NCBI GenBank assembly: GCA_048886685.1
Contig: JBHLKM010000003.1
Coordinates: forward strand, 192,001 to 256,000
Direction: 5' to 3'
Length of the DNA stretch: 64,000 nt
Origin: Candidatus Hodarchaeota archaeon
GTDB taxonomy: Archaea; Asgardarchaeota; Lokiarchaeia; Sigyniarchaeales; SOKP01
Shown: piece by piece, positions 18,996-48,199 of the stretch
Position numbering within the stretch: the stretch's first letter is position 1
Layout: each line of letters starts with the position of its first letter
Notes under the pieces: generated by a model
Databases searched by the model: none
Told to the model about the DNA's origin: nothing
What the model saw: only the letters and a program-made list of their open reading frames with translations
Position numbers and translations under genes: made by a program

Positions 18996-21900
18996 ATGGT
19001 AAAGATCGTTGCCTCACTCAGAAATTTCCGTGATCGTATCAGAACCTCAATAAGTATAAAAACCCAAAATGTATTGTTTTTCTTCGCAATTTTTTTGGTT
19101 ATATTCTTAGCTATACTATTAAGGATTAGTCCAATAATTAGAGGCCCACGTTTAATTAAAGCTTTTGATCCTTGGATACAATGGTATAATGCAGAATATT
19201 TATCAGAACATTCTTTATATGAATACTTCTCATGGCATGATTTTAAGAGCTGGTATCCAAATGGATTTTACCGTGGAACTCTACGTCCAGGTTTGACCTT
19301 TACTGTTGTAATAATATATAAAATACTAACCTTTTTTGGTATTCCTATCTCTCTCTATGACATTTGCTATTTCTTCCCCGCAGTTATGGGAGGTTTAACA
19401 GTTTTAGTCATTTATTTCTTAGGAAAAGAAATTCTTGATCGAGGGACTGGATTAATTGCTGCTTTTTTCCTAGCCTTTAATCCGGGTTATATGCAACGTA
19501 CAATGGTAGGATTTTTTGATAATGAAACAATCGGCGTTTTTGCTTCTCTGTTGACATTTTTATTTCTTCTAAAAGCTATAAGAACTGGAAGATTTTTATA
19601 TTCCATTCTTAGTGGTCTTTCTTTAGGCTATTTGTCTCTAAGTTGGGGGGGGTATCAATTTGTGTATTTGATTATCCCACTACTATGTATTATATTAATC
19701 CTAATTGATAAATACAATGAAAATATACTAATTTCTTATGCTGTTGTTGAAGGAACTGGGTTGTTAATTTTCTCTTTATATACAGGTTTTAGATATGATG
19801 CTCTATTTTCAGATTTAGAAACAGGCGGCATTTTTCTATTTACTATTATTTTAATTATATTTCATATAATACAAACAAAAAGAGTGGAACACCCATCTTT
19901 ATATAAGAGTATATTAAATGCTGTAAAGTGGGGTTTTATACCCGTTTTTTTAATTGGTGCAATAATTATATGGACTGCTCCTGATCTGCTTCCTTTTGGT
20001 TTTGGTGCAAAATTTCAAACAATTCTTAACCCTTTATTTCGAGATGAAATAAGTCTAGTAGCTTCAGTTGCTGAACAGATGCCAAGTCCGTGGAGCGTTT
20101 TTTATTATAATACTTTGATTCCATTAGTTTTAACACCCCTTGGAGTTTATTTCTGCTTCAAAGTGTTAAATGCCCCAGAAATTTTTCTAATAACATTTGT
20201 AATCCTAATGTTTTATTTTACAGGGAGTATGATTCGGATCATATTAATATTTTCACCTGCAGTTTCTTTGATGGGTGCATATGGATTAGTAAGTGTATTA
20301 AAAATCTTTGGTAGCTTTTTAGGGGACAGGAGAGAAGGTATTAGTAGAAAACGCAAAAGACAATTAAAAGGCACAATTGGGAATTCTGAAATTCTTGCGA
20401 TTTTCATGATTGTTGGGTTTTTAGGAGTTGCTCAAATTGTTCATGCATCTGACATTTCGATTGACCAGTTTTCTTATACACAAATATCACCGGCTGGTGT
20501 TCTTCACGATTGGGAAGAATCTCTCATGTGGATGAGATCTAACTTAGAAGGAACGGATGTGGTTGTATCTTGGTGGGATTACGGCTATTGGCTTACCCCT
20601 ATCGGTAACGTGACCACAGTTAATGATAATGCCACCATGAATTCAACTAGAATTGGTTTAACGGGTATGGCTCTAATGCAGACCAATGAAATTTATAGTG
20701 CAAAAGCATTTCGTAGGTTGAAAGCAGATTATGTCTTAGTATACTTTGGATTAATGATTAGTGGCTTGGGTGGAGATGAAGGGAAATGGCCTTGGATGAT
20801 AAGAATTTGTAATGATAATTATGCAAGGTATAAAGCTCGTGGTATGGAGGAGGATAATTGGGGTGAAGATTTTGTATTTAATGAAAGTTCGTACCAAGAT
20901 CCCAATACCGGAAGAATGTGTCCTAATTGGTTTAATAGCCAGCTGGTTAAATTGATGTTTTCTTCGGCTCCTGAATTAGGATATTACCTGCCAACGAATC
21001 GGGATGAAGTACAGAGAGAAGATATAAGGTGGACCTATGTTAATACGATTAACAACGAAAATAATCCTACTTGTGAAGGTGGAGTATGGAAAGACTATAT
21101 CCCAGACAATGGATTATACGATTACAACATATTTATTCCCACATATATCTCATCTACAGGCTTAGTGAAACTTTTTAAACTTGACTATACAGTCTTAGAA
21201 TCAAGTTTTACAATACAAGAAGCGGAGGTTTTTGAAAACGGATATGCTACATTCAAACTCACGAATACTGGTACGAAAGATTTGACTATAAAAAGTGTAA
21301 AGATTAATGGAACTGATTATGATTTTGTGATAAGCAATAGTGCCGAAATTAATAAAATTGAGAATGGTGCTTCAGAGATGGTTTGGGTTGACATTAAATC
21401 GAAAGGTACAACTTTTCAAAAAAATGATGTAGTAAATATTGATGTAACTGCTGAATCGGTAGCATTACAAGGAAAAAAATATGAATTTTCAAATGCTACT
21501 AAAAATTTCTTTGTAAAAGTACCAGCACAAGGTGCTATAAAAATTAATAAAGAAAATAGTTCGATAATCCAAAAAGACCTTTTAACAACAGATATATATC
21601 TTGAAGTAGAAAACTACGGAGAATCGATTGAAGTCTTAGAAAGATTTTATTTAAACGAGGATACTATTGAAAATGAAATAAATTCTAATAATATTGAATA
21701 TCTTAGTGGTTCATCTATATTAAAACCAGGGGAAAAAGCAGACATATATATAAATGACATAAATGTTATTGATTTTGATTCTGTTGAGATTATGGGTACT
21801 AACTTGTATGTTTCTAAAATTGGGGTTGCAACCCCTAATAATGTAAGTGATGAGGTATTATTTAGCTCAACTCTGGAAAATTATTCGATCTCTATTTTGA

Positions 21901-22967
21901 GTGAAGAGAGGATTATTTCTCCTGAAGCTCTGCTAGCAATTAATAGTATTAAAAGAGTACACATTCCTGCTAATTTCAATTTCACTCATGGATTTACATA
22001 TGAGAATGAAAGTACAATCTTGAAAATTAATGTGAAAAATACTGGAGATATTGTATTTGGAATAGATTCAATTTATTTAACAGATTCTTTGATTGAAGTT
22101 GATTATGCAGATTTCTATACACAAAGTGGAAGCGTACTTTTGTATGAAAACCAAGAAGATTTTATAATTATTGATGCAACCAATTATGGTAATTTTGAGA
22201 TTAATGATGAAATACTAGTCTGTGTTACTGGAAGTTTTGGAATAACAGGTTCGGTAACATCAGATATAGGTTATATTCATACAGTTAAAGATGATCCAGA
22301 TATTCAAATAATTGAAAATATCGATGATATAATGACTTCTTTTATTTATGCTAATGAGACAGGGAAATTAGTAATTAAAAATACCGGAGATGAGCCTGTG
22401 ACCATTGATGATATCTATGTGAATTCCACTCTTGCTACAAATATAACATATCTCTCGGGAAAACCTTCTCTTGACATTCAAGAATGCGCAATTGTATCTT
22501 TTGACATTCCAGATTTAATGTTAAACAAATCAACCGAAATAATTGTGAATATTACAACTACTTCTACCGCTACAACTAGCGAGACTTTTAATGCTTATGT
22601 AGATCCAGCATATTATAGTCTTGTGATTGATGACGATGCAACTGAGGTAGATAACAATGCAAATATGACTTTATTATTTACAAATACCGGAAAGGCTAAT
22701 GTAACAATTGAATCCCTCTATGTAAATGATACTTATGTTCCGTTATCAAATATTTATGCTTATTTTAATAATACTTGGGTACCATTAACAAGTAGTAATA
22801 TATTAGCTTTTGAAATAGGCATTGGAGATACTATGGAATTAACCATCAGAGTTAATGATCTCGAAGTGATTACAGGTCTTACGATTAATGTTGATGATGA
22901 AGTAATAATCACTATACGAACTGAAGAGGGTCCTGAGATTATTCACGAAGAAATTGTAATTCCTTAG
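18996..22967 (+). CDS. aglB: oligosaccharyltransferase AglB/STT3 with long C-terminal beta-rich extension
   Basis: FDPW, DNE, SVAE, WWDYG, DNAT motifs; multi-TM N-terminal half. Confidence 0.93.
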   Translation: MVKIVASLRNFRDRIRTSISIKTQNVLFFFAIFLVIFLAILLRISPIIRGPRLIKAFDPWIQWYNAEYLSEHSLYEYFSWHDFKSWYPNGFYRGTLRPGLTFTVVIIYKILTFFGIPISLYDICYFFPAVMGGLTVLVIYFLGKEILDRGTGLIAAFFLAFNPGYMQRTMVGFFDNETIGVFASLLTFLFLLKAIRTGRFLYSILSGLSLGYLSLSWGGYQFVYLIIPLLCIILILIDKYNENILISYAVVEGTGLLIFSLYTGFRYDALFSDLETGGIFLFTIILIIFHIIQTKRVEHPSLYKSILNAVKWGFIPVFLIGAIIIWTAPDLLPFGFGAKFQTILNPLFRDEISLVASVAEQMPSPWSVFYYNTLIPLVLTPLGVYFCFKVLNAPEIFLITFVILMFYFTGSMIRIILIFSPAVSLMGAYGLVSVLKIFGSFLGDRREGISRKRKRQLKGTIGNSEILAIFMIVGFLGVAQIVHASDISIDQFSYTQISPAGVLHDWEESLMWMRSNLEGTDVVVSWWDYGYWLTPIGNVTTVNDNATMNSTRIGLTGMALMQTNEIYSAKAFRRLKADYVLVYFGLMISGLGGDEGKWPWMIRICNDNYARYKARGMEEDNWGEDFVFNESSYQDPNTGRMCPNWFNSQLVKLMFSSAPELGYYLPTNRDEVQREDIRWTYVNTINNENNPTCEGGVWKDYIPDNGLYDYNIFIPTYISSTGLVKLFKLDYTVLESSFTIQEAEVFENGYATFKLTNTGTKDLTIKSVKINGTDYDFVISNSAEINKIENGASEMVWVDIKSKGTTFQKNDVVNIDVTAESVALQGKKYEFSNATKNFFVKVPAQGAIKINKENSSIIQKDLLTTDIYLEVENYGESIEVLERFYLNEDTIENEINSNNIEYLSGSSILKPGEKADIYINDINVIDFDSVEIMGTNLYVSKIGVATPNNVSDEVLFSSTLENYSISILSEERIISPEALLAINSIKRVHIPANFNFTHGFTYENESTILKINVKNTGDIVFGIDSIYLTDSLIEVDYADFYTQSGSVLLYENQEDFIIIDATNYGNFEINDEILVCVTGSFGITGSVTSDIGYIHTVKDDPDIQIIENIDDIMTSFIYANETGKLVIKNTGDEPVTIDDIYVNSTLATNITYLSGKPSLDIQECAIVSFDIPDLMLNKSTEIIVNITTTSTATTSETFNAYVDPAYYSLVIDDDATEVDNNANMTLLFTNTGKANVTIESLYVNDTYVPLSNIYAYFNNTWVPLTSSNILAFEIGIGDTMELTIRVNDLEVITGLTINVDDEVIITIRTEEGPEIIHEEIVIP

Positions 22968-23115: not shown

Positions 23116-25148
23116 ATGATTATGGATTTTCAATTACAAACTGAATATAAACCTGCAGGCGATCAACCTTTAGCTATTCAAACATTAACAGAGAATATTA
23201 GGAATGCTAAAAGTTTTCAAACCTTATTGGGCGCAACTGGGACAGGGAAAACATTTAGTATTGCTCAAATAATACAAGAAGTACAGAAACCAACATTAGT
23301 AATGTCTCCTAACAAAACTTTATGTGCCCAACTCTATAATGAGTTTAAAGAACTCTTTCCTGAAAATGCCGTTCACTACTTTGTCTCTTACTATGACTAT
23401 TATCAGCCAGAAAGAACATTTCATTAAGAAATTTTCTGGAAGCATACATGCCTGTTTCGGGGATGTACATAGAAAAAGACTTCAGTGTGAACGAGGAAAT
23501 AGAAAGATTACGATTGGCTGCTACTCACGCTATTAGGACAAGAAAAGATGTTATTATAGTCGCTTCTGTTTCATGCCTTTATGGAATTGGGAACCCAGAG
23601 GTTTGGACAGCAGTTTCTCTCAGTTTAGAAACAGGACAAACGATTAACCGGGGGGAAATATTGAAAAGGCTAATTAGCATTAATTATGAGCGAAACAATA
23701 TTGATTTTAAACCAGGCGTGGTAAGGGTAAGAGGAGACATTATAGATATATGGCCAGCATACTTAATTAATGCTTTACGGGTTTCGCTTTTTGGGGATGA
23801 GATTGAATCAATTCAAGAGATACATCCAATTTCGAGTGAAGTATTAAACGATTTACCTAATTGCCGAATTTTCCCTGCCACTCATTTCATCATTCCAGAA
23901 GAAAATAAAGTGAAAGCGCTTGAATCAATAGAGGTTGAATTAACTGATCAACTTGATAAATTTAAGAAAGAAAAAAAATATGCTGAAGCACAACGATTAG
24001 AAAGACGCATTAAATTTGATTTAGAAATGTTAAGAGAAATGGGGTGGTGCAAAGGTATAGAGAACTATTCTAGACATCTAGATGGAAGAGCACCCGGTTC
24101 TCCTCCTATGACATTAATTGACTACTTCCCAGAAGATTTCCTTATTGTCGTGGATGAATCTCATGTTTCAATCCCTCAAATTCATGGACAAATCGGGGGA
24201 GATAGATCTCGTAAGAAAAATCTTGTAGACTATGGGTGGCGTTTGCCAAGTGCCTACGATAATAGGCCACTTACTTTTGAGGAGTGGGAGAGTAAAATTA
24301 AATATACAATTTTCATGAGTGCTACTCCGGGAGATTATGAATTAGAGAAAAGTGGGGAAATTTCAGCAGAGCAAATAATTAGACCTACAGGTCTTGTAGA
24401 TCCTCAGGTTGAGGTTAGACCTGCGAAGAACCAAATTGATGATTTGTTAGGAGAAATTAGAAAAGTCGTAGACAATAACGGCAGGGTTTTAGTTACTACA
24501 CTTACTAAGAGGATGGCTGAAGATATAGCAGATTATTATTCTGAATTGGGAGTTAAAATAGAATACTTACACTCAGAAGTCGATACTGTGGAGAGATTTG
24601 AGATATTAAGGCAATTAAGAGATGGTACTTATGATGTTGTAGTAGGAATTAATCTTCTTCGAGAAGGATTAGATCTTCCTGAAGTGCAATTAGTTGCAAT
24701 CTTAGATGCTGACAAACTTGGATTTCTACGCGATACTCGTTCTTTAATTCAAACAATTGGAAGAGCCTCTAGAAATGTTGAAGGAAAAGCAATCTTATAC
24801 GGTGATAGAACCTCTATAGCAATGAAAGCGGCGATAGACGAAACAAATAGGAGAAGGAATAAACAGATTGCGTACAATGAGAAAAATGATATAACCCCTC
24901 AAACAATTAAGAAAAATATTCTAAAATCTTTATCAGAGGAAAAAGAATATAAAGAAAGAGAAGTAAAAAGATTAAAACAGAATGTTAAAGCAAAAATAGA
25001 TCAATTACAAGAGGAAGGAGATATTGAGATTGTGATTGAATATCTTGAGAATAAAATGTTTATGGCTGCAAAGGAACTTAGATTTGAGGATGCAGCATAT
25101 CTACGTGATAAAATTAAGGAAATACAAAAAGATTATAAAAAAACATAA
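23116..25148 (+). CDS. uvrB: excinuclease ABC subunit B, interrupted; predicted join(23116..23412,23442..25148), 667 aa
   Basis: [20 protein letters not shown] in part 1; AYMP..., [19 protein letters not shown] and UVR domain in part 2; removing 29 nt restores the frame. Confidence 0.93.
23413..23441 (+). other. candidate 29-nt bulge-helix-bulge intron in uvrB mRNA
   Basis: CCAG 23407-23410 pairs with CTGG 23436-23439; 3-nt bulges AAA 23411-23413 and AAG 23440-23442; internal stem-loop; canonical cuts give YQPE|AYMP. Confidence 0.8.
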
Positions 25149-45328: not shown

Positions 45329-48199
45329 ATGAGTCAGAATTCAATTATTATTAAAGGAGCAAGGCAGAACAATCTAAAAAACATAAATGTTATAATTCCT
45401 CGTAATAAATTAGTAGTTATTACTGGAATTAGTGGGAGTGGAAAGTCATCTTTAGCAATGGATACATTGTATGCGGAGGGACAAAGAAGGTTTTTAGAAT
45501 CACTATCCAGTTATGCAAGACAATTCTTAGGTGAAATGGACAAGCCAGATGTAGATTCAATTGAAGGATTGTCGCCTGCAATTGCAATAGAACAAAAACC
45601 ACTCTCTAAAAATCCAAGAAGTACGGTAGGAACTGTCACAGAAATTTATGATTATTATAGGTTATTATTTGCTAATATTGGTATCCCACATTGCCCCAAT
45701 TGTGGAAAAGAAATAAAACCCCAAACACCACAACAAATTATTCAAATACTTCTAAATTCTATTAAAGAAAATCAGAAATTTATAATCAAGGCCCCTCTAA
45801 TAAGAGACAGAAAGGGGGAATATAAAGAACTTCTGCAGGATTTAAGAAAGCAGGGTTATGTAAGAGTAGAAGTAGATGGGATTCAGTATACTTTAGATGA
45901 AGAGATAACAATGAAAAAGAATATGAAGCATAATATCAACGTAATCCTTGACAGATTAGTAATGCGTAAAGATATAAAAACAAGATTAGCTGATTCGATC
46001 GAAAATGCCTTAGATCTAGCAGAAGGATTAGTTATCGTTGAAATCATTGACGAAGGAGAACAAATATATTCAGAACACCTTGCTTGTATAGATTGTGGAA
46101 TATCATTTCCTCAGCTAGATCATAAAATGTTTTCATTTAATATCCCTCATGGAAGTTGTAGGTATTGTAGTGGATTAGGCACTGTTATGGAATTTGATTA
46201 TGGATTAGTATTAGGAAATGATTTAACTGCACCACTTAAAGACACCCCAATCAGAGATATTCCTGGATTTGGATCTGAGACAGGTTATTCTTGGCAAACC
46301 ATAGAACAAGTCGCAAAACATTATGGGTTTAATGCCAATAAGACTCAATTACAAGAAATTGATCCGGAGAAATTACACAGGTTATTATTTGGTTCTGAAA
46401 ATGAATCAATAGATTTTCATTTTGAAAATAATGGAAATGATTACAAGAACCAAAATGGTGAATTTAAATCATCCTGGGATGTTGTGAGACCTTTCGAGGG
46501 AATTATTCCAATATTACATAGAAGATATATGGAGACTCGCTCTGAATGGGCTCGGGAGATCTATGAAAGTTTTATGAATAGGATTTCATGTCCTCAATGT
46601 AAAGGAAAAAGGTTAAAACCTGAGAGCTTAGCAGTTACTATAAATGATCTAAACATCGCACAACTATCAGATTTGACAGTAAAAGAATCAACTAAATTTT
46701 TTAATTTATTGCAGCTAAGTGAAACTGAAAAAACCATAGCAAAAGAAATATTAAAAGAAATTTCGGATAGATTGTCATTTTTAGAAAATGTGGGTTTGGA
46801 TTATATTTCATTAAGCCGTCGCTCACACACATTATCTGTTGGAGAAGCAGAGAGAATAAGATTAGCAACTCAATTAGGTTCTAGTTTAGTAGGTGTATTA
46901 TATGTATTAGATGAGCCAAGTGTAGGTCTACATCAACGAGATATAGATAGACTCATAAATATGTTAAAAAAATTAAGAGATTTAGGTAATACTGTTATTG
47001 TAGTTGAGCATGATGAGGCAATAATGCAAAATGCAGATCATATCATTGATTTAGGACCCTTAGCTGGTGAAAAGGGTGGAGAAATAGTAGCAGAGGGACC
47101 AATAGAACAAATTATTAAAGCTAATACGTTAACTGGAAGATATTTATCAGGAAAGGAAAAAATTGATATACCACAGAGTAGACGTAAAACAAATTATGAA
47201 TTTCTTCAAGTAATAGGAGCAAGAGAAAATAATTTGAAGAATATTAATGTGAAGATTCCTCTAGGGATATTTACTTGTGTAACAGGCGTTTCAGGGGCAG
47301 GTAAGACAAGTTTGATTATCGATTGTCTATATAAAGGTTTACATAATCTTATCAACACACGTAGTTCAAAAATCAGTGAAGGGGATTTTGATACTATTGA
47401 AGGTTATGAAAAAATAGATAAAATTATTAATATTGACCAATCACCAATAGGAAGAACTCCAAGATCAGTTCCCTCAACTTATACAAAAGCTTTAGATTAT
47501 ATCAGAGATATTTTTGCTCAATTACCTGAATCAAAAGAAAGGGGTTATAAAAAAGGGAGATTTAGTTTCAATACTAAAGCAGGTCATTGTAAGAAATGCA
47601 AGGGTACTGGTTATATCCTAAAAGAAATGTACTTCCTTCCTGATGTTTATATTAGATGCGATTTATGTAAAGGAAAACGATATAATGCAGAAACATTAGA
47701 AATCAAATATAGAGAAAAATCGATTTCAGATGTTTTAAAAATGACATTTAATCAAGCTTTAGAATTTTTTGACAGCTTTCCAAATTTAAAGAGAACTTTA
47801 CAAACAGTAGTAGATGTAGGTTTAGGTTATTTAGAATTAGGTCAATCATCAACAACTCTTAGTGGTGGAGAATCCCAAAGACTAAAAATCGCAAGGGAAT
47901 TACGAAAAACTAGTACAGGAAATACTCTCTATATCTTAGATGAGCCTACCACCGGATTACACATGTATGATATTAAATTTTTGTTAGATGTACTTCAAAA
48001 ATTAGTCGATAAAGGTAACACAGTAATAATTATTGAGCATAATATGGATATAATTAAATCTGTTGATTATATAATAGATCTTGGGCCCGAGGGTGGAGAA
48101 AAAGGCGGAGAGATTGTAGTTTTAGGGACTCCCGAAGAAATTGCTAAAGATAATAATTCTTACACCTCTCAATTTTTAAATAAATACTTAAATAATTAA
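45329..48199 (+). CDS. uvrA: excinuclease ABC subunit A
   Basis: GISGSGKSS, LYAEGQRR, zinc fingers, GVSGAGKT, LSGGE, LDEPTTGLH. Confidence 0.97.
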   Translation: MSQNSIIIKGARQNNLKNINVIIPRNKLVVITGISGSGKSSLAMDTLYAEGQRRFLESLSSYARQFLGEMDKPDVDSIEGLSPAIAIEQKPLSKNPRSTVGTVTEIYDYYRLLFANIGIPHCPNCGKEIKPQTPQQIIQILLNSIKENQKFIIKAPLIRDRKGEYKELLQDLRKQGYVRVEVDGIQYTLDEEITMKKNMKHNINVILDRLVMRKDIKTRLADSIENALDLAEGLVIVEIIDEGEQIYSEHLACIDCGISFPQLDHKMFSFNIPHGSCRYCSGLGTVMEFDYGLVLGNDLTAPLKDTPIRDIPGFGSETGYSWQTIEQVAKHYGFNANKTQLQEIDPEKLHRLLFGSENESIDFHFENNGNDYKNQNGEFKSSWDVVRPFEGIIPILHRRYMETRSEWAREIYESFMNRISCPQCKGKRLKPESLAVTINDLNIAQLSDLTVKESTKFFNLLQLSETEKTIAKEILKEISDRLSFLENVGLDYISLSRRSHTLSVGEAERIRLATQLGSSLVGVLYVLDEPSVGLHQRDIDRLINMLKKLRDLGNTVIVVEHDEAIMQNADHIIDLGPLAGEKGGEIVAEGPIEQIIKANTLTGRYLSGKEKIDIPQSRRKTNYEFLQVIGARENNLKNINVKIPLGIFTCVTGVSGAGKTSLIIDCLYKGLHNLINTRSSKISEGDFDTIEGYEKIDKIINIDQSPIGRTPRSVPSTYTKALDYIRDIFAQLPESKERGYKKGRFSFNTKAGHCKKCKGTGYILKEMYFLPDVYIRCDLCKGKRYNAETLEIKYREKSISDVLKMTFNQALEFFDSFPNLKRTLQTVVDVGLGYLELGQSSTTLSGGESQRLKIARELRKTSTGNTLYILDEPTTGLHMYDIKFLLDVLQKLVDKGNTVIIIEHNMDIIKSVDYIIDLGPEGGEKGGEIVVLGTPEEIAKDNNSYTSQFLNKYLNN

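Follow-up and report, generated by a model that had tools for sequence, protein, structure and literature searches.

A 29-nucleotide insert that breaks the reading frame of uvrB is best explained as an archaeal intron of the EndA/RtcB type that would be spliced from the mRNA of a working gene, a reading to which we assign a probability of about 0.9. The insert lies within the window, as we call the whole 64,000-nucleotide stretch of DNA that was analysed, on contig C3 of an Asgard archaeal genome. The preliminary description of this DNA had proposed such an intron from its letters alone, and the comparative evidence set out below strongly supports the proposal.

The uvrB reading frame is interrupted

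In the window uvrB is read in two frames, 23116-23427 (103 aa) and 23448-25148, and an in-frame TAA lies inside the insert at 23425-23427. As previously described, deletion of 23413-23441 restores the conserved motif [10 protein letters not shown] and leaves a protein of 667 aa with a single terminal stop. On the TIGR00631 profile the two halves of UvrB abut without gap or overlap, exon 1 covering positions 2-96 and exon 2 positions 97-657. The layout of the gene and of its pathway partner is as follows.

23116..23412, + strand: uvrB exon 1 of 99 codons; it encodes Walker A GATGTGKT and ends at YYDYYQPE, halfway through the beta-hairpin
23413..23441, + strand: putative BHB-type intron, 29 nt; phase 0, between Glu99 and Ala100
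23442..25148, + strand: uvrB exon 2 of 568 codons and a stop; the motifs DESH, SATPG and QxxGRAxRN are intact
45344..48145 (C3:237344-240145), + strand: intact uvrA, pathway partner in the same window, a 961-aa open frame

A possible alternative start of uvrB is the ATG at 23122. The gene is single-copy, uvrC is also intact in the genome, and the nearest named record, a Promethearchaeota (Asgard) genome, has 72% identity to exon 1 and falls among the uvrB genes of the family in the tree. In all 78 distant loci that were parsed, mostly bacterial, uvrB reads through the insert site without an insert. A short AGAA repeat stands on both sides of the insert in this genome, where the identical protein results from any of five equivalent deletions of 29 nt (starts 23409-23413). 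There was no long antisense ORF across the intron and no match in an Rfam search, and a sigma-70 promoter scan, using a consensus unsuited to archaea, stayed at the level of shuffled sequence. Directly upstream of uvrB, in this genome and in all relatives examined, lies a gene for AglB/STT3, here 1323 aa in length, with a long extension at the C terminus (window 18996-22967). Besides the canonical uvrA, the genome also holds extra UvrA-like genes (C14:93014-100421), one of which has a 1633-aa frame that contains two UvrA-like units.

The insert fits a relaxed bulge-helix-bulge

The insert and its flanks can be drawn as a bulge-helix-bulge (BHB), in which the helix, bulge, TAA, inner-stem and loop coordinates of the preliminary description proved correct:

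23407..23410, + strand: exon-side strand of the central helix, CCAG; relatives of type B have CCGG
23411..23413, + strand: 5' bulge AA^A; predicted cut after 23412 (cut rule PMC2738675)
23414..23435, + strand: inner stem-loop of the intron; G14-U35, A15-U34, A16-U33, bulged C17, AUUUC/GAAAU and loop AUUAA, with the TAA inside
23436..23439, + strand: intron-side strand of the central helix, CUGG; relatives of type B have CCGG or CCGA
23440..23443, + strand: 3' bulge AA^G and the single outer pair C23443-G23406; predicted cut after 23441

When the insert was shuffled, a 4/4 central helix together with the first inner pair arose in 4 of 20,000 sequences (0.0002), none of which folded as well too, and helix plus hairpin occurred in shuffled inserts at a frequency of at most 0.00035. 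The pairing scheme described earlier is correct, whereas its reading as a plain BHB needs qualification, since the strict hBHBh' form has an outer exon-exon helix of at least two pairs and here there is one G-C pair. Moreover, in the local fold of lowest energy (-9.7 kcal/mol) the 5' bulge is base-paired, and the BHB fold reaches -5.5 kcal/mol, that is, 4.2 kcal/mol above the free fold in this genome as against 0.1-3.7 in relatives, so that splicing may be inefficient here. With its weak outer helix and a fold other than the minimum-energy one, the motif is relaxed rather than strict, and most cbf5 introns have likewise been reported with a relaxed motif (PMC2738675).

A BHB is cut after the second base of each bulge (PMC2738675). 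In the nine carriers of an insert at this site the 3-nt bulges stand on opposite strands, the first inner pair of the intron-side helix that closes the 5' bulge is always formed, and cuts after bulge base 2 restore the conserved protein in 9/9. In G009 the sole deletion offset that restores YQPEAY is the one predicted by the bulge rule. Hence the earlier claim that the predicted cuts fall exactly on the frame-restoring boundaries holds as consistent throughout and unique in G009, while for this genome, with its five equivalent deletions, the word 'exactly' goes too far. Across the aligned sequences, cleavage after bulge base 2 followed by RtcB ligation is very probably the only rule that yields the invariant motif in every carrier.

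We infer the following course of events. The uvrB pre-mRNA would fold into a relaxed BHB in which a 4-bp helix joins exon and intron, the intron hairpin closes one bulge, of 3 nt, and weak exon-exon pairing closes the other; the two-subunit EndA of the host would cut each bulge behind its second base, and ligation of the exons by RtcB would give YQPE/AY and a 667-aa UvrB. Translation of the unspliced RNA would produce a dead fragment of 103 aa.

Relatives carry different inserts at the same bond

Eight other assemblies have inserts of 30-32 nt at the same bond of uvrB, so that the carriers comprise eight genomes and one metagenome contig (L047), with lengths of 29 (one), 30 (four) and 32 nt (four). 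Carriers were found by a protein search blind to RNA shape, which added four genomes whose first frame is short, and then by pattern and family searches; of the 13 pattern matches in the phylum, five were intron-free genes matched by chance. Short first frames in G248, G212, G250, G206, G217 and G008 turned out to be intron-free genes truncated at contig ends. The inserts fall into three types.

Type A (29-30 nt): this genome, G017, G222, G227, L047
Type B (32 nt): G007, G019, G220
Type C (32 nt): G009

Presence is patchy, as a comparison of uvrB among relatives, proposed in the preliminary description, made clear: 8 of the 44 genomes of the window's genus that have uvrB carry the intron, and it was not found in 73 other genomes of the family with a match. 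Neither a longer insert nor an ORF for an intron-encoded endonuclease was found at the site among the 117 family genomes with a match, where inserts measure 29-32 nt. The three types are mutually unalignable (13/36 to 20/36 identity), and all lie between the same Glu and Ala codons with the aglB-uvrB synteny kept. The insert blocks translation in every carrier, the 30-nt inserts keeping the frame yet carrying an in-frame TAA and the other lengths shifting it, and splicing would give an intact UvrB of 663-670 aa with its helicase motifs, one of which varies in pattern in L047.

The comparison also brought out compensating changes. The central helix is Watson-Crick at 4/4 positions in this genome and six others and at 3/4 in two, being CCAG/CUGG in types A and C, CCGG/CCGG in G007, where a synonymous exon change is matched by an intron change (exon A/intron U to G/C), and CCGG/CCGA with one C-A mismatch in G019 and G220. 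The first three inner pairs (columns 17-19) differ between types on both sides. Of the cells of the BHB alignment 87.5% are paired, compared with at most 56% for slid registers; the shuffle control for covariation ignores relatedness, which inflates its result, and the covariation at the central pair traces to a single event in the tree. Outer-helix pairs number one in type A, none in type B and two in G009 only.

The interrupted gene evolves under constraint

Among carriers dN/dS is about 0.02-0.11 in both exons up to a dS of about 2, compared with 0.04-0.09 in intron-free pairs, and uvrB shows no further lesion in the nine carriers. Directly after the insert the codons for Ala100 and Tyr101 differ at third positions alone (GCA/GCG/GCC/GCT and TAC/TAT) in all nine, which indicates that they are translated. 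Judged by these substitution patterns, the interrupted uvrB is a functional gene under purifying selection. Within types the intron itself is conserved at 26-28/30 and 24-26/32 positions, against 0.60-0.69 at fourfold-degenerate sites.

The bond was occupied at least twice, and one intron was probably lost

Types A and B form one clade, with a support of 100 in two trees and 77 in a smaller tree, while G009 sits among intron-free genes in another clade. An AU test rejects one common origin for the carriers (p=2e-5), and we therefore conclude that the bond was reached at least two times, whether by independent gain or by lateral transfer, unless there were many losses. The uvrB of G221 (L193) is intron-free and sister to that of the carrier G227, with a support of 100 and about 95% identity. 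Just before the junction (L193 ~1343-1376) 9/33 bases differ between the two, versus 5.4% downstream and about 10% further upstream; this pattern suggests that the intron was lost when uvrB recombined with a foreign allele lacking it, and not with the cell's own cDNA. The first two tyrosines are encoded by TAC TAT in all nine carriers, a pair rare among non-carriers, which may reflect co-conversion of the flank or a preferred target. An intervening element of another kind also occurs in uvrB: in G003 (L135:608-4189) an intein of ~520 aa with LAGLIDADG and HTH domains interrupts Walker A, and L201 (G238) probably has a UvrB intein likewise.

Alternative explanations

Four other accounts of the insert fit the data worse than a spliced intron. 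The most tenable of them, which we nevertheless consider very improbable, is a split gene, in which an exon 1 piece of 101-117 aa and a chain restarted at ATG 23448 would assemble into UvrB. The in-frame ATG 6 nt past the insert indeed opens 566 aa and is preceded at 5 nt by an RBS-like GGAAG (GGAGG in G007), but this Met is also present in intron-free relatives and the purine stretch before it is lost in G019 and G009. A restart would leave the codons of Ala100 and Tyr101 untranslated despite their purely synonymous variation, the tails of the N-terminal pieces are unrelated between insert types, the break would fall within the beta-hairpin that verifies damage (PMC5053424), and the covariation of the BHB would go unexplained. 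Less probable still is a ribosomal bypass of the T4 gene 60 kind, a hop from GAA 23410 to GAA 23439 over the hairpin. Type A does have matching GAA codons around an insert with hairpin and stop between them; the landing codons in G019, G220 and G009, however, are AAA, AAG and GAC, from which a matched hop would not yield the invariant Glu, no stop directly follows the take-off codon, and inserts that differ in length (29, 30 and 32 nt) would call for different recoding events.

We rate just as low a pseudogene made by insertion of a hairpin with duplication of GAA, a possibility raised in the preliminary description, to which the AGAA repeat with its five equivalent boundaries would lend itself, and UV repair might conceivably be dispensable in sediment. 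It is contradicted by the nine carriers free of other lesions, by dN/dS values unchanged to a dS of 2, by the missing GAA duplication in G009 and by intact uvrA and uvrC. The 29 nt found here, as against 30 in the closest relatives, fall in a T run where a one-base error is possible; that the insert as a whole is an assembly artefact is hardly credible given diverged versions at the same bond in eight independent assemblies. A further proposal adds to splicing rather than competing with it, namely that the intron works as an XBP1-like switch that ties excision repair to EndA and RtcB, as the preliminary description had supposed. The unspliced form would be inactive, the intron is constrained within each type and the bond was occupied at least two times, but we found no support for regulation and regard it as unlikely: the intron is missing from most relatives and precisely lost in G221, no sequence is common to the types, unrelated genes in this genome harbour similar inserts, and the constraint is expected from the need to stay cleavable alone. 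The patchy distribution and the ease of loss speak for a tolerated passenger rather than such a switch, and the spliced uvrB intron is most likely a passenger of this kind, one of many in the genome, kept only as a cleavable shape.

The host has splicing enzymes and further inserts

The genome encodes a catalytic EndA of 198 aa with the Tyr, His and Lys present, whose best PDB match is the enzyme of Aeropyrum pernix and which shares with it an extra N-terminal loop with a Lys, together with a second EndA subunit that lacks the His and an RtcB, all three genes being intact. EndA loops of this kind have been linked to relaxed substrate recognition (PMC12397907), and likeness to the A. pernix EndA and the loop suggest that the two-subunit enzyme is suited to relaxed motifs (PMC12397907, PMC2724299). 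EndA cleavage and RtcB ligation are established for tRNA, rRNA and cbf5 (PMC2738675, PMC7714728), and many tRNA introns are present in this genome.

The preliminary description had also suggested a scan of the genome for other frame-broken genes with BHB geometry, and a census revealed further cases. It drew on the proteins encoded in about 0.8 Mb of two relatives, used no motif, covered 550 genes and 529 kb, and returned three frame-broken genes with four inserts, all of which have a 3/4 or 4/4 central helix and the bulge geometry; among stop-free in-frame insertions 1/16 scored versus 0.45 expected. Apart from uvrB, the census found a 34-nt BHB-type insert just before a CxxCxxC in an Fe-S gene (C18:88180-88213), probably cdhA, the alpha subunit of CO dehydrogenase/acetyl-CoA synthase, where removal gives 100% local identity to G005. 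The third gene, on C3 outside the window, has two inserts, 76487-76520 (34 nt) and 76537-76567 (31 nt), that flank a 16-nt micro-exon, and removing both restores the sequence of intron-free relatives. Four more inserts, whose boundaries were judged by short motifs only, have BHB-type geometry at the motif-restoring boundary:

C17:95399-95367: 33 nt, cobO
C1:204867-204901: 35 nt, uL11
C20:41204-41175: 30 nt, GH38 mannosidase
C40:3422-3451: 30 nt, acetoacetate-CoA ligase

In this genome at least six other genes thus carry similar inserts, and 3/550 extrapolates to a suggested figure of about 20 genes, leaving uncounted any introns shared with the query genomes. The uvrB intron has no copy elsewhere in the genome within 6 mismatches. 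Two ab initio scans for BHB shape and frame joining, with length-shifted nulls, gave true counts equal to null counts and so had no power, the second missing uvrB itself. At C2:319378-317966 an in-frame TGA aligns to Cys in an HdrA-like Fe-S protein and is likely selenocysteine, because a tRNA-Sec is called in the genome.

Comparison with known systems

On balance we lean towards the view that mRNA splicing by the tRNA machinery is routine and genome-wide in this lineage. Its short BHB introns would number some tens and lie in unrelated genes, including a tandem pair on either side of a 16-nt micro-exon, and they would be gained repeatedly and site-specifically and lost by recombination. If this is true, the closest relatives of eukaryotes would possess a spliceosome-free intron system, which would be a hidden cause of genes mis-annotated as 'split' or 'pseudo'; with uvrB and further genes of this kind, the splicing of mRNA would belong to everyday gene expression in Asgard archaea. 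The question bears on the first entry of introns into mRNAs near the origin of eukaryotes and on annotation that misses or truncates real genes. With intron-bearing and intron-free sisters 95% identical, three types at one bond and short substrates, uvrB offers a compact test system.

The parallel with XBP1 drawn in the preliminary description does not carry far. Like the introns of XBP1, HAC1 and bZIP60 (PMC13149111, PMC4282640), that of uvrB is short, frame-changing and spliceosome-independent, and the animal form is RtcB-ligated, so that the type of ligation alone would be common. Those introns, however, are cut by IRE1, another enzyme, at another motif of two stem-loops (PMC13149111), whereas the uvrB boundaries lie in bulges of one helix; they are also stress-regulated and deeply conserved, neither of which is expected for the uvrB intron, and the 30-nt uvrB relatives, unlike them, keep the frame.

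Closer counterparts exist in archaea. The non-canonical tRNA introns of Asgard archaea (PMC11291895; bioRxiv 10.64898/2026.10.13.758758) share a BHB or relaxed motif and repeated gains, but both reports concern tRNA genes only, and a text search of the preprint (bioRxiv 10.64898/2026.10.13.758758) found no mention of mRNA or cbf5. No Asgard mRNA intron appeared in the literature searched, a search that most subscription journals lay beyond. The 5'-UTR BHB intron of HVO_1309 in Haloferax volcanii (PMC7714728) is likewise an mRNA substrate of the splicing endonuclease, yet it sits in an untranslated leader and breaks no reading frame; that 2020 study named cbf5 as the only earlier mRNA case (PMC7714728). 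In the papers searched, a coding-sequence BHB intron is therefore confirmed in one other archaeal gene, cbf5, and one more lies in a 5' leader, in agreement with the earlier statement that cbf5 is the main known case.

The cbf5 intron of Desulfurococcales and Sulfolobales (Watanabe 2002; Yoshinari 2006; Yokobori 2009, PMC2738675) is the nearest likeness. At 16-44 nt it is short and ORF-free like that of uvrB, and both lie within a conserved functional motif of a coding sequence, have an unconventional BHB with the cut, predicted for uvrB, after the second bulge base, belong to hosts with a two-subunit EndA, and show variable length and frame and lineage-specific loss. In the sequences compared, the uvrB insert displays every testable feature of a cbf5-type intron, the strict motif excepted. 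It differs in gene and phylum and in being one of several in its genome; splicing of cbf5 was shown by cDNA, while that of uvrB is predicted here from sequence comparison. Finally, cbf5 records one ancient gain, whereas the uvrB intron is recent and patchy and arrived at least twice at one bond.
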